Shown here in pieces: positions 552-4,891 of a stretch of DNA of 4,891 nt (its first letter is position 1; each line of letters starts with the position of its first letter). The stretch lies in IMG/VR virus record IMGVR_UViG_2585427789_000012; one strand, 5' to 3'. The DNA comes from a virus. Taxonomy: Duplodnaviria > Heunggongvirae > Uroviricota > Caudoviricetes. A model generated the notes under the pieces. The model had not been told where the DNA came from, searched no databases, and saw only the letters and a list, made by a program, of their open reading frames with translations. The translations under genes were made by a program, and so were the position numbers.

Positions 552-781
552 CCTTCACCTGTTCACCTTTTGAGATTTTCCCTTTTTATTCATAATGTTA
601 AGGGGTGAACAGTTTCACAAAAACTATTCACCAACTGTTCACCACTGTTCACCCTTAAAGCTCAATAAATAATCAAAAAGGTGAACAGTGAATAGTTTGG
701 TGAACAGTTCACAAATAACTGTTCACCCTATAATGTACTGATATAAAAGATATTTATAACAGGGTGAACAGTGGTGAACAG
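552..781. repeat. Iteron array: nine perfect copies of CTGTTCACC/GGTGAACAG plus degenerate copies; crr/ori-like replication element
   Basis: CTGTTCACC at 559-567, 635-643, 645-653 and 719-727. The inverse GGTGAACAG at 604-612, 680-688, 699-707, 763-771 and 773-781. Degenerate copies at 552-559, 613-618, 627-632, 688-695 and 708-712. An AT-rich stretch (728-762) sits inside the array, which lies directly downstream of the replication gene. Confidence 0.8.
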
Positions 782-794
782 TTATTCCATAAGT

Positions 795-3144: not shown

Positions 3145-3397
3145 GGCTTACATCCTCAGGAAATTTTCTTCTATAACGCGCCTCTGCCACATATTCCGCA
3201 TAATCGGCGGCGATATTCAGTACATCAAGCCCCGTTGATTTATATTCTCTCGTGGAAAGTAAGAAAAAAGCCGCTCTAATAAGCTCTGGCATTGACGAAA
3301 GCGCATCAGCCGCATCATCAGGAACGCCGGAAAATTCCTGTTTCAGGGAATTAAAACGATCATCACGCATAACCCCCCCCATTTTCACAATCAGCAA
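3137..3397 (-). CDS. Hypothetical protein; 86 aa from the TTG at 3397, more likely 77 aa from the ATG at 3370 (alternative ATG at 3382)
   Basis: The ATG at 3370 gives the same 8-nt ATGCGTGA start/stop overlap seen at 3137-3144 and is preceded by the G8 tract (3373-3380 on the minus strand) acting as an SD-like element. The N-terminus is therefore ambiguous. Confidence 0.55.
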   Translation of the reverse strand: MLIVKMGGVMRDDRFNSLKQEFSGVPDDAADALSSMPELIRAAFFLLSTREYKSTGLDVLNIAADYAEYVAEARYRRKFPEDVSHA

Positions 3398-3602
3398 TCA
3401 GGATGGCTTTAGCCTCATTCAGCGCCATATCAGCACTAAATTGCATAAGAGCCAGTGAGTGAGGAACGAAAGCCCCGGTATATTCTGTTTCGCTGGTGGC
3501 GTGCTTATGCGCCTTGTCTGCGATAACAGAAATATCAATCAGCGCGTGCATCAGCGTTTTGATGGCTTCGGCGGCTGCGTCCGGTGTGGTTTTATTGTGC
3601 AT
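3363..3602 (-). CDS. Hypothetical protein, 79 aa
   Basis: ATG at 3602 with SD-like GGGGGA 6-7 nt upstream; it overlaps the stop of the upstream gene by 11 nt. The C-terminal codons run through the G8 homopolymer. Confidence 0.6.
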   Translation of the reverse strand: MHNKTTPDAAAEAIKTLMHALIDISVIADKAHKHATSETEYTGAFVPHSLALMQFSADMALNEAKAILIADCENGGGYA

Positions 3603-3798
3603 AGGTTTCCCCCTGGCGAATACGGGCGGCGAATACCATCACGCAGCCATCAGGAGATTGCTGACGCGCTTCCTGTTCGCTGGTGGCCTCAATGGTAATC
3701 ACGCGCGGTTGTGCCGTGCTCAGGGCGATAAAACGCCAGATGTATTTATTCAGGTTGTACGAGTCCCGCCCTTGCGGGTGTCTGGTATAATTTCTCAT
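3592..3798 (-). CDS. Small protein, 68 aa, first gene of the leftward operon; possibly Icd-like (host cell-division inhibitor family)
   Basis: ATG at 3798 with SD GAGG at 5-nt spacing. It is the C-terminal 68 codons of the 382-aa track ORF (MRNYTRHPQGRDSYNLNKYIWRFIALSTAQPRVITIEATSEQEARQQSPDGCVMVFAARIRQGETYAQ). The Icd-like label is from recalled annotations of P4-like prophages and is not verified. Confidence 0.55.
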   Translation of the reverse strand: MRNYTRHPQGRDSYNLNKYIWRFIALSTAQPRVITIEATSEQEARQQSPDGCVMVFAARIRQGETYAQ

Positions 3799-3905
3799 AG
3801 CTGCCTCGATACTTCTGCTATCGTTGGTGGTTAGACGCCCTGCATGTGTTGCGAGCACTGCGGGGCGTTGCTTAATTTGAGTGACAAAACTCAAACTGTG
3901 CGCAC

Positions 3906-3935
3906 AGATTAAAATCATGTGTGCGCACATGTCAA
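3906..3935 (-). promoter_or_regulatory. Candidate leftward early promoter (-35 TTGACA at 3935-3930; -10 TAATCT at 3911-3906, 18-bp spacer)
   Basis: Perfect -35 hexamer on the minus strand with a moderate -10; predicted start near 3899, giving a ~100-nt leader before the ATG at 3798. Confidence 0.4.
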
Positions 3936-3938
3936 TAC

Positions 3939-3967
3939 TTAACATCTCATTTTTTTTGCTGTATTGT
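3939..3967 (+). promoter_or_regulatory. Candidate rightward promoter (-35 TTAACA at 3939-3944; -10 TATTGT at 3962-3967, 17-bp spacer)
   Basis: Sigma70-like hexamers read by eye, positioned divergently from the leftward promoter and upstream of the ATG at 4004. Confidence 0.3.
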
Positions 3968-4003
3968 GTGCGCCCATAAAGTCCATTTAAGTGAGGTGCA
4001 TCA

Positions 4004-4201
4004 ATGTCTAGCGGTAACACAAACAACAAATCAGCAAAGAAAAATATTCGATTCCCACATGAGCTTATAGATGGGATTGATGCCAGCGTTGAACAAGAAA
4101 AATTAACTAATCCTAGTGCTAATTTTTCCGCATGGGTCTTAGATGCCTGTGGACGCAAATTAAAATATGAACAGCGCCGGAAGGCCAAAGAATCAGAATA
4201 A
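4004..4201 (+). CDS. Small DNA-binding protein, 65 aa; putative ribbon-helix-helix (CopG/Arc/ParD-like) regulator
   Basis: SD AGGT 6 nt upstream of the ATG. KKNIRFPHELIDGIDASVEQEKLTNPSANFSAWVLDA fits the RHH pattern of an N-terminal beta-strand followed by two helices. It is divergent from the early operon and next to the palindromic operators. Confidence 0.5.
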   Translation: MSSGNTNNKSAKKNIRFPHELIDGIDASVEQEKLTNPSANFSAWVLDACGRKLKYEQRRKAKESE

Positions 4202-4243
4202 TCACTATCAGCGCCGTGGTGTGAGTAACTACGGCGCATTGCT

Positions 4244-4432
4244 ATGCAGGGCAACACAATGACCGATAAAGAATTGACCAAAACATTATCACCGACACGG
4301 AAAAGACGGCGCAGAAAGATAGAGCATGAATCAGAAAGATTCGCACCTTGTTCGTTTGCTCTTGAGAAATTCCTTAAAGAGCGCAGGAAAAAACTCTCGT
4401 TGCAAACCTTGGAACGAACCAAATCTGACTGA
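4244..4432 (+). CDS. Hypothetical very basic small protein, 62 aa (or 57 aa from the ATG at 4259)
   Basis: ORF containing TRKRRRRK; weak SD for the 4244 start, AGGG 9 nt upstream of the 4259 start. A terminator follows. Coding status is uncertain. Confidence 0.3.
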   Translation: MQGNTMTDKELTKTLSPTRKRRRRKIEHESERFAPCSFALEKFLKERRKKLSLQTLERTKSD

Positions 4433-4498
4433 TCACATTGCCCACCAGCCGCAAATGTGGCATTGTTGGTGATGCTTTTGTTTTCCCTTGTTCCCACT

Positions 4499-4527
4499 GG
4501 CGACCCTTTTGCGGTCGCCTTTGTTTT
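4499..4527 (+). terminator. Rho-independent terminator (stem GGCGACC/GGTCGCC, 7-nt loop, TTTGTTTT tail)
   Basis: Perfect 7-bp GC-rich stem at 4499-4505 and 4513-4519, followed by a U-tract at 4520-4527. A weaker bulged hairpin with a U-rich tail precedes it at 4443-4484. The reverse complement has no U-tract, so it is + strand specific. Confidence 0.65.
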
Positions 4528-4565
4528 GCCTGTTATCCGGCAATAGTGGCGCTTCACCACACGGT

Positions 4566-4574
4566 TGATATAAT
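4566..4574 (+). promoter_or_regulatory. Extended -10 promoter element TGATATAAT
   Basis: Perfect TATAAT at 4569-4574 with TG at 4566-4567; no good -35, which extended -10 promoters can lack. Predicted start near 4581. Confidence 0.4.
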
Positions 4575-4580
4575 TCCCCT

Positions 4581-4651
4581 GCACTGATCCATTTTTTTCG
4601 CAGCAGGTTAATTGTTCAGAAAGGCGGTTCCTTATCGGGGCCGCTTTTTTT
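4581..4651 (+). ncRNA. Candidate ~70-nt small RNA (from the extended -10 promoter to an intrinsic terminator)
   Basis: Predicted start near 4581. Terminator hairpin GCGGTTCC (4624-4631), loop TTATC, GGGGCCGC (4637-4644; two G-U pairs), then T7 (4645-4651). No ORF of note lies between them. Confidence 0.3.
4624..4651 (+). terminator. Rho-independent terminator (8-bp stem, 5-nt loop, T7 tail)
   Basis: Stem GCGGTTCC/GGGGCCGC with two wobble pairs, followed by TTTTTTT at 4645-4651. Confidence 0.55.
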
Positions 4652-4891
4652 ATGCCTGAAAATACCCGATAACATGGCTTTTTAGTTTCACCAGGACGAA
4701 CGAAGCCCCGCCCCTGTTCGGGCGTATATCCAGTATTCATGGTTAGATCTCTGTGTTAGTGGATGGGTGGCGGCGGTGCGCCGCCAGCCTGATTAGTGAA
4801 CTGCCTCGCGGCTGTCCTTCCATGCCAGAACTTCGGATAAAGACCAGCCAACGGAACGACCGCCGAGTTTACGCCGTGATGGGAATTGTCC

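Follow-up and report, generated by a model that had tools for sequence, protein, structure and literature searches.

A 65-aa protein of the YlcI/YnfO (DUF3950) family, encoded beside the replication operon of a phage satellite, quite probably binds three short operators (O1, O2 and O3) and represses both that operon and itself. No function is assigned to DUF3950 in the accessible literature and, on comparative grounds, we propose that of a transcriptional repressor. The architecture of the sites, the fold of the protein and the covariation of its residues with the operators are established by comparing the sequences of related islands, and from these we infer that the protein would bind the sites, repress and autoregulate.

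The DNA analysed (the window) is 4,891 nt long and 100% identical to part of E. coli E600003 record NZ_CM128598.1, in which it belongs to a roughly 15-kb island that has yifB as its insertion site. According to the annotation of that record the order on the minus strand is integrase, an alpA-type helix-turn-helix gene, the switch region, the Icd-like gene, four small reading frames, DUF4222, a D5/P4-type primase, an iteron-rich origin, SSB and ProQ, followed by major capsid, protease, portal, connector, HNH, TerS and TerL, with tail genes absent; protein-family scans were consistent with this gene set. An island of about 15 kb that carries int, alpA, a primase module and its own capsid and packaging genes up to TerL, without tail genes, is a capsid-forming PICI (cf-PICI) as defined in 10.1101/2022.09.08.507074, and the window is therefore the control and replication half of a cf-PICI. 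The integrase is situated beyond the alpA-like gene, a homologue of which (in locus L050) is annotated as AlpA family, and GGTGAACAG iterons are present in the region following the primase, as in P4. AlpA is required to induce Gram-negative PICIs and cf-PICIs and is turned on by the helper phage, and it has been stated that the global repressor of Gram-negative PICIs was not identified (PMC6092414; 10.1101/2022.09.08.507074; PMC11773190). For Gram-negative PICIs the activator AlpA was necessary and sufficient for induction, with no repressor needed so far (PMC6092414), and induction by a helper phage and mobilisation via AlpA are established for cf-PICI EcCIEDL933 in the literature on that island. 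In P. aeruginosa AlpA is a processive antiterminator (PMC7969949, PMC9371919). The switch region and its surroundings contain the following features.

3592..3798, minus strand: Icd-like protein of 68 aa, first gene of the leftward operon and C-terminal part of a long reading frame (NCBIfam NF033153, E = 1e-19)
3896..3907: predicted operator O1, CTGTGCGCACAG, with a perfect core at 3897-3906, placed over the final two bases of the PL -10 and over the predicted start site
3906..3935, minus strand: predicted leftward promoter PL, with -35 TTGACA (3935-3930), an 18-bp spacer and -10 TAATCT (3911-3906)
3919..3930: predicted operator O2, GTGTGCGCACAT, with a perfect core at 3920-3929; it fills the PL spacer and adjoins the -35
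3939..3967, plus strand: predicted rightward promoter PR, with TTAACA (3939-3944), 17 bp and TATTGT (3962-3967), driving the ribbon-helix-helix gene
3966..3977: predicted operator O3, GTGTGCGCCCAT, with a 9/10 core at 3967-3976, sharing two bases with the end of the PR -10 and extending over the start site
4004..4201, plus strand: 65-aa YlcI/YnfO (DUF3950) protein, predicted ribbon-helix-helix repressor, with a ribosome site GAGG 7 nt upstream
4244..4432, plus strand: orf62, a basic 62-aa reading frame 3' of the ribbon-helix-helix gene (PHROG 21027, E = 2e-13, a function-unknown family)
4499..4530, plus strand: terminator-like intrinsic hairpin and T-run at the end of the rightward unit, from sequence scan and folding
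4619-4651: second intrinsic terminator-like hairpin and T-run
4792..4891, minus strand: 3' end of the alpA-like helix-turn-helix gene, from the annotation of the identical record (full gene at 16793-16981 of L001)

The initial annotation of this DNA had described two perfect 10-bp palindromes 23 bp apart and a degenerate third copy 47 bp further on over the rightward -10, the perfect pair lying over the -10 and spacer of a leftward promoter with a perfect TTGACA, and each of these points was borne out. Exact copies of TGTGCGCACA are found at 3897-3906 and 3920-3929 (23 bp start to start) and TGTGCGCCCA, which matches it at 9 of 10 positions, lies another 47 bp along at 3967-3976; O1 is on the end of the leftward -10 and O2 is in the spacer. 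The 28.9 kb made up by the island plus flanks holds no further copy with one mismatch or fewer beyond these three sites, and 2 of 2000 dinucleotide shuffles of the window produced two identical, perfect 10-bp palindromes within 60 bp, so that it is very unlikely that the three-site arrangement arose by chance. The 12-bp frame in which O1, O2 and O3 are given above is the frame common to the sites of relatives. The PL -35 is the reverse complement of 3930-3935, and the best -10 (the reverse complement of 3906-3911) is in register with that of relatives; PL is predicted to drive the operon that runs from the Icd-like gene to the primase. PR was the sole promoter-like match of the promoter scan and its -10 recurs in relatives; orf62 is possibly co-transcribed with the ribbon-helix-helix gene. 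O3 is likely to be a weaker, autoregulatory site. The one word in the initial description that was inaccurate is 'phased': 23 bp corresponds to about 2.2 helical turns and 47 bp to about 4.5, and helical phasing of the sites was rejected. The conserved spacings reflect the fixed place of each site relative to the promoter elements and do not suggest a simple dimer–dimer contact.

An alignment-based search with the 65-aa protein gave 45 loci from species-level genomes (a set that includes Serratia, Rahnella, Klebsiella, Enterobacter, Pectobacterium, Brenneria, Pantoea and Erwinia as well as Xenorhabdus, Proteus, Morganella, Arsenophonus, Gilliamella and Orbus), to which extra E. coli, Klebsiella and Pasteurella elements were added. 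About 50 diverged islands, ranging from those of E. coli to those of Orbus and Pasteurella, show the same layout. Most loci have an integrase on the right, often with alpA, and an operon of Icd-like gene, DUF4222 and primase on the left, with related first genes at most of them. In the loci that were read the 230 bp upstream of the gene share one anatomy: a 12-bp GTG-N6-CAC site adjoins GTCAA (the -35) in 43 of 46 loci, a second 12-bp copy lies 23 bp leftward in 41 of the 46 and a third lies 46-47 bp rightward in 31. The leftward promoter of the relatives read is represented by TTGAC(A/G) and a TA(A/T)nnT hexamer at the same register, and their third site is preceded by a TAnnnT hexamer with an overlap of two bases. 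Retention of the site positions over the core elements of back-to-back promoters in about 50 diverged islands fits the original proposal that these are the operators of a repressor switch. As regards conservation of the palindromes themselves, position and spacing are kept in related elements and the sequence is not: the site centre is island-specific, with at least 12 different centres (the TTTAAA-centre class has four sites). Related sequence occurs in about one-third of complete E. coli genomes, at up to six places per genome, and a search of the switch-region DNA against the phage collection gave no match.

Two copies of a palindrome also make an inverted repeat, and O1 and O2 could therefore act at the RNA level, as a hairpin or terminator in a long transcript. 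The arms 3897-3909 and 3917-3929 are 92% complementary and the sequence scan marks a terminator-like site on the minus strand at 3931-3916, which speak for such a role. Many relatives, however, have asymmetric sites arranged as direct repeats (for example GTGTGCACCCAC, GTGTGTAGACAC and TGTCCGCACA), which makes a hairpin impossible while spacing and position are kept, and neither the third site nor the link with protein residues described below is explained in this way; we regard an RNA-level role for the repeats as highly improbable.

A candidate binder of the sites is encoded by the adjacent gene, whose 65-aa product is a member of the YlcI/YnfO family (NCBIfam NF041551, 59 bits against a cut-off of 30; Pfam DUF3950 PF13132, 28.3 against a cut-off of 25) and matches PHROG 949, a function-unknown family, with E = 1e-27. 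In an AlphaFold2 monomer model (pLDDT 75) the N-terminus is extended and is followed by two helices, so that the protein models as a ribbon-helix-helix fold: the strand-helix-helix topology spans about 45 residues, as in the ribbon-helix-helix superfamily (Arc/MetJ/CopG), and the strand has the alternating pattern of such proteins, with positions 12 and 14 varying with the operator and R16 invariant on the one hand, and K13 and F17 invariant and position 15 I or V on the other. Both PR and PL are overlapped by the three cognate-looking sites, which covary with the protein in the comparison of islands. At the level of sequence no match was obtained in a PDB sequence search with the family profile or between the window protein and Pfam Arc, and hhalign against a manually entered Arc sequence aligned the strand and first helix with a probability of 5%. 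A YlcI/YnfO homologue is also present in phage lambda records, and the family presumably includes E. coli K-12 prophage genes, to judge by its name. That the layout is general to the whole family was rejected, as the lambda homologue lies near cos with no comparable repeated palindromes upstream.

The initial annotation had named this 65-aa protein as the candidate binder, and in its favour the operator centre tracks its residues 5, 11, 12 and 14. The 12 or more classes of operator centre follow the four residues that precede an invariant IRFP motif. The segment concerned and the pairings found were as follows.

4016..4051, plus strand: specificity segment, residues 5-16 (N T N N K S A K K N I R), comprising N-terminal arm and strand, from column scan, partial Mantel tests and natural swaps
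Residues 11-14 AKKN, DKKN, KKKN or TKKG: operator centre TGCGCA
Residues 11-14 TTKG: operator centre CA(C/T)A(T/A)A
Residues 11-14 xY/FKG: operator centre TTTAAA
Residues 11-14 AKKH or DKKA: operator centre TG(C/T/A)ACC
Residues 11-14 KRKD: operator centre TCCG(C/T)A
Residues 11-14 DRKA: operator centre TGGGCA
Residues 11-14 QLKN: operator centre TGTAGA
Residues 11-14 AQKK and ATKK: two further operator centres

In a partial Mantel test the operator was correlated with residues 11-14 when the rest of the protein was controlled for (r = 0.49, p <= 2e-4), and the reverse test gave r = -0.08. An unbiased scan of all alignment columns ranked residues 12, 5, 14 and 11 top, with helix columns not comparable. 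K13, R16 and F17 were invariant in the 34 loci scanned, position 15 being I or V, and this alternation would therefore place the variable residues 12 and 14 together with invariant R16 on one face of the strand, the pattern expected of a DNA-facing strand. Natural swaps agree with this. Between L039 and L045 the 35 compared residues that follow the strand are identical, yet residues 11-14 are DRKA and KRKD, respectively; the operator is GTGTGGGCACAC in L039 and TTGTCCGCACAT in L045. L013 and L015 differ at position 12 (Q and T) and at positions 4, 5, 20 and 32, and their operators differ. A whole cassette appears to have been exchanged in the O157:H7 element L049, where a different, unannotated Arc-like gene occupies the same place (weak matches to Arc, Pfam E = 0.038, and to PHROG 228 'Arc-like repressor', E = 1.5e-6) and the palindrome pair is TGGTAATTACCA twice; orf62, for which the pattern by codon position was uninformative, is kept in this element, whose repressor cassette differs. 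We take it that this O157:H7 island may be related to the prototype cf-PICI.

Covariation of this kind could also arise from linkage only, if the operator region and the 5' end of the gene formed one recombination cassette without any recognition between them. When residues 11-14, residues 1-10, helices and flanking DNA were entered as four predictors in a partial Mantel test, flanking non-operator DNA did correlate with operator class (partial r = 0.25, p = 0.001) and, as the codons of the specificity residues lie no more than 150 bp from the operators, the covariation must in part reflect cassette inheritance; L039 and L045, moreover, resemble the products of a recombination breakpoint at the IRFP motif. 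In the same test, however, residues 11-14 retained r = 0.37 (p = 3e-4), whereas residues 1-10 as a block, which are encoded nearer to the operators, gave r = 0.03 and the helices r = -0.07. Loci that share the sequence MATGNKNNKS show four operator classes that follow residues 11-14, the same strand motif and the same operator recur together on diverged backbones (L018/L035 and L007/L008), and the covarying residues 12 and 14 share a strand face with invariant R16. Linkage thus contributes to the covariation yet does not explain the signal, and as the sole explanation it is scarcely probable.

A further alternative is that some other factor (AlpA, the Icd-like protein, a host regulator or a helper-phage protein) binds the palindromes and that the YlcI-like protein has a different task. 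AlpA is known as the master regulator of Gram-negative PICIs (PMC6092414) and the PHROGs label of the Icd-like family is 'transcriptional repressor', which lend this some plausibility. A conserved host or helper factor does not fit with a site sequence that varies between islands. AlpA was rejected as the binder, there being no such site near alpA or int and the operators differing from island to island; the layout is also retained in islands whose retrieved flank shows no detectable alpA. The Icd-like protein was rejected as well, operator class being unrelated to Icd-like sequence (r = -0.06, p = 0.8), and the Icd-like proteins of L016 and L031, like those of L013 and L015, are near-identical and accompany different operators. 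Binding by another factor is therefore very unlikely. The comparison favours the 65-aa protein, the operator centre appearing to track residues 5, 11, 12 and 14 and not the helices, the block of residues 1-10 or the Icd-like gene.

The mechanism that we propose is as follows. The 65-aa ribbon-helix-helix repressor would be produced from PR, and the N-terminal strand of its dimer would enter the major groove of each 12-bp GTG-N6-CAC site, with the N-terminal arm probably contributing too. O1 and O2 would bracket the PL -10 and their occupancy would exclude RNA polymerase, leaving the replication operon from the Icd-like gene to the primase silent while the island is integrated. O3, which has one mismatch and lies over the PR -10 and start, would mediate negative autoregulation at a higher level of repressor. 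Specificity would lie in residues 5, 11, 12 and 14, facing the variable operator centre, so that islands would carry different, non-cross-reacting pairs of repressor and operator, in other words immunity types.

The switch region is more than plain intergenic DNA, and the earlier reading of it had not included an antisense reading frame, a candidate antisense RNA or the upstream AlpA. The additional features are listed here.

3592..4740, minus strand: long nested reading frame of 382 aa with its ATG at 4740, resembling P4 eta/kil
3783..3791, plus strand: extended -10 candidate for the antisense RNA, TGGTATAAT, within codons 3-5 of the Icd-like gene
3798..3882, plus strand: candidate antisense small RNA, with a hairpin at 3807-3823, the conserved single-stranded sequence TTGGTGGTTAGA, a GC-rich hairpin at 3835-3868 and a weak T-rich tail

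The ATG of the long frame lies 52 nt past the alpA stop, and the frame runs antisense to orf62 and the ribbon-helix-helix gene and across the three operators and both promoters to enter the Icd-like gene in frame. Of 44 loci, 36 have a minus-strand frame that crosses the switch without a stop, the other two frames containing 9.6 stops on average, and this frame usually opens with a good ribosome site and an ATG; in 16 of 27 loci the frame of the first gene extends upstream for 100 or more codons without a stop. Synonymous contexts in ylcI that would create antisense stops are depleted (of 124 codons before His or Gln 3 end in T, the background being 27%), the exceptions being loci without a long frame in phase with the first gene. 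The long minus-strand frame is kept open by selection. Its encoded sequence to the right of ylcI has no conservation at the protein level and a Pfam search of the long frames found no domain, Bro-N included, so that a conventional protein was rejected as its product; substitutions by codon position between the window and O157 (6/10/10) were uninformative. The family of the Icd-like gene into which the frame leads is annotated as cell-division-inhibitor-like. A tblastn search of the phage collection with the Icd-like protein found only another cf-PICI, with no similarity to P4 or P1 records, and a link to P4 Kil or P1 Icd is not supported.

Two hairpins that lie between PL and the start of the Icd-like gene show conservation with compensatory changes, and the RNAalifold energy was -25.7 kcal/mol on the plus strand against -9.8 on the minus strand, the better plus-strand fold arising because G.U pairs on this strand turn into A.C mismatches on the other. 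The single-sequence fold of the plus strand had -38.4 kcal/mol (z = -4.6; minus strand z = -2.1). The candidate RNA is complementary to the ribosome site and start codon of the Icd-like gene and had no Rfam match. The relatives read have a TAnnnT hexamer 4-11 nt ahead of the start-codon complement, an observation confounded by coding constraint. Taken together these features point to a structured antisense RNA of about 85 nt that probably covers the ribosome-binding site of the Icd-like gene. An Rfam scan of the whole window on both strands at E <= 1 found no C4, CI or isrK RNA, which the Icd-like first gene had led us to expect, the matches obtained being spurious microRNA matches on the ori iterons.

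The long frame allows a different role for the binding protein, as a roadblock or timer that acts mainly against read-through from the alpA side and not by occluding PL. Small ribbon-helix-helix dimers are generally poor roadblocks. All three sites do lie inside the frame that leads from the end of alpA to the replication operon, and in P4 an upstream late promoter reads through the equivalent zone (PMC10111431). Against this, a -35 close to consensus (TTGACA or TTGACG) and a -10 keep a constant register relative to O1 and O2 in the relatives read, which is hard to explain if PL is not a real promoter, and we consider a predominant roadblock role unlikely. The two roles are not mutually exclusive.

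Alongside occlusion of PL by the repressor, a more speculative step would account for override at induction. Helper-induced AlpA would drive transcription from upstream, the transcript would be translated continuously through the eta-like frame, as in P4, and read-through would cross PR and the repressor gene in antisense before entering the replication operon. Speculatively, such AlpA-driven translated read-through would both override the repressor and interfere with PR. As AlpA was necessary and sufficient in published work (PMC6092414), any repression may be partial or conditional. A still more inclusive picture, which we put forward tentatively and regard as possible but doubtful in its entirety, is that Gram-negative PICIs and cf-PICIs have a DUF3950 master repressor with a readable code (residues 5, 11, 12 and 14) that defines many immunity types, that its gene is antisense in a frame kept open for the sake of translation, that AlpA-driven read-through, shielded from Rho by its coupling to translation, collides with the promoter and gene of the repressor, enters the replication operon and so flips the switch, and that a cis-antisense RNA forms a third layer of control over the Icd-like gene.

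Ribbon-helix-helix repressors with repeated operators are textbook knowledge. What appears to be new in the accessible literature is a function for DUF3950, a candidate repressor and immunity types for Gram-negative phage satellites, and a repressor gene that lies antisense inside an eta-like translated frame. The DUF3950 (YlcI/YnfO) family would gain a testable function as a transcriptional repressor, and the studied cf-PICI and related islands of Enterobacterales, Orbales and Pasteurellaceae gain a candidate repressor. The natural series of repressor–operator pairs would amount to a compact recognition code for the ribbon-helix-helix strand, usable for orthogonal synthetic repressors and for typing the immunity groups of satellites, and a repressor gene antisense in an open frame of unconserved sequence offers an unusual, tractable case of selection for translation itself.

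Among known systems the immI region of P22 (Mnt/Arc) is similar in having small ribbon-helix-helix repressors at closely apposed opposite promoters (Pant and Pmnt in P22), autoregulation, and a cis-antisense RNA (sar) over the ribosome site of the first regulated gene, all of which are predicted here, and in having its specificity in a short N-terminal segment. Arc reads bases with Q9, N11 and R13, a pattern that positions 12, 14 and 16 of the island protein match, and Knight and Sauer reportedly placed the operator specificity of Arc and Mnt in such a segment in 1989. It differs in that similarity of sequence is negligible (the hhalign probability of 5% with the manually entered Arc sequence, and the failure to match Pfam Arc, do not place the window protein in the Arc/Mnt family), that the island has one repressor gene and P22 two, that the island sites are three separate 12-bp elements at 23 and 47 bp whereas P22 has one 21-bp site for a tetramer, and that the regulated function is a satellite replication module rather than an antirepressor. 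CopG of pMV158, Omega of pSM19035 and MetJ bind contiguous boxes (heptads or 8-bp met boxes) cooperatively, side by side, in contrast to the island sites, which at 23 and 47 bp are each tied to a promoter element. The SaPI Stl/Rpr system shares with the island a divergent repressor gene beside the satellite replication operon and the role in quiescence proposed here (PMC6092414). Stl, however, is a large helix-turn-helix protein inactivated by helper-phage proteins, whereas the island protein has 65 aa, another fold and no sensor domain; no antirepressor is known for it, and Gram-negative PICIs are reportedly induced through AlpA. The eta/kil region of P4 (PLL, PLE and CI RNA) resembles the island in lying downstream of an alpA-type gene, in having a long frame with an internal promoter that ends in frame with a short first gene (4740 to 3592 here) and in having a P4-type primase and GGTGAACAG iterons after it. 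Late transcription of P4 can read through the immunity zone because eta is translated, according to PMC10111431, which summarises Forti et al. (1999). P4 immunity depends on CI RNA acting through premature termination, and the window has no C4, CI or isrK RNA at Rfam E <= 1; its short gene has no BLAST similarity to P4 or P1 records and its long frame no Bro-N or other Pfam domain. Unlike P4, the island is predicted to place a protein repressor gene antisense inside the long frame, together with the DNA operators for its product.

An open frame lies on the strand opposite the predicted ribbon-helix-helix repressor gene ylcI.

Window 3592-4740, minus strand: 382-codon reading frame, antisense to the predicted repressor gene, with counterparts in the compared loci L002-L049.

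The frame spans the entire switch and enters the Icd-like gene in frame. It is kept open in 36 of the 44 diverged loci, and contexts in ylcI that would create antisense stops are depleted. Its encoded sequence is without conservation and without a domain. In the GenBank record of Pasteurella phage Pmp7 the long frame is given as a CDS labelled 'transcriptional repressor', while PGAP labels it either a pseudogene or a long 'Icd-like protein'.

The Icd-like gene itself (window 3592-3798, minus strand) belongs to a family described as a host cell division inhibitor in NCBIfam and as a 'transcriptional repressor' in PHROGs (phrog_6196 and phrog_1743). We found no relation between the Icd-like sequence and operator class (the sequence type of the variable site centre), and because of this the PHROG label is unsupported for the switch. 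A second, candidate element overlaps the start of this gene.

Window 3783-3882 including the possible promoter element, plus strand: small antisense RNA candidate, about 85 nt long, with a possible extended -10, hairpins and a tail.

The possible extended -10 is TGGTATAAT and the tail at the end is T-rich; the two hairpins carry compensatory changes and the plus strand folds much better than the minus strand. The candidate RNA is complementary to the Icd-like gene at its ribosome site and start codon; Rfam gave no family match for this RNA. Further along the leftward operon, a run of eight C (window 3373-3380; G8 on the coding strand), possibly prone to slippage, lies where the end of a 79-aa gene overlaps the start of the next.

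Two elements follow the predicted repressor gene.

Window 4244-4432, plus strand: basic 62-aa reading frame (RKRRRRK), 3' of the predicted repressor gene.
Window 4499-4530 and 4619-4651, plus strand: two intrinsic-terminator-like hairpins with T-runs, 3' of the 62-aa frame.

The long minus-strand frame has the second of these hairpins within its first 40 codons. The 62-aa frame matches PHROG 21027, a family of unknown function, and is kept in the O157 island although the predicted repressor cassette there differs. Other cassettes, and a phage homologue, are as follows (coordinates are those of each locus).

L049 (island flanked by roxA and pepT in E. coli O157:H7 F6667), 3290-3510: unannotated 57-aa Arc-like frame (MSTPLEKRSPPYQMRLPEDF...), in a position equivalent to that of the window's predicted repressor gene.
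L050 1670-1910, L051 1950-2190 and L052 1720-1960 (other E. coli islands): diverged predicted-repressor subfamily (...AARVPHEV... or ...EARVPHAI...).
L053 (lambda-like phage O276), 200-394: YlcI/YnfO homologue (MSTKNRTRRTTTRNIRFPNQMIEQ...), carried by lambda-type phages near the genome right end.

The Arc-like frame is accompanied by two TGGTAATTACCA palindromes, the second overlapping its start codon and a TTGACA; the sole PGAP annotation in this switch region is a pseudogene on the opposite strand. The L050-L052 subfamily has its own site triplets, 11-bp GTGTT-N-AACAC and GGTGTCAGCCAC. Lambda records carry the same ORF as L053, and as no repeated palindromes comparable to those of the window were seen upstream of this lambda-type homologue, its target, if any, would differ from the sites predicted for the window protein.

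The island's presumed origin is an AT-rich stretch that lies just 3' of the primase gene.

Window 558-783: iteron GGTGAACAG / CTGTTCACC, at least eight copies, in both orientations.

This sequence corresponds to the P4 origin's type I iteron.
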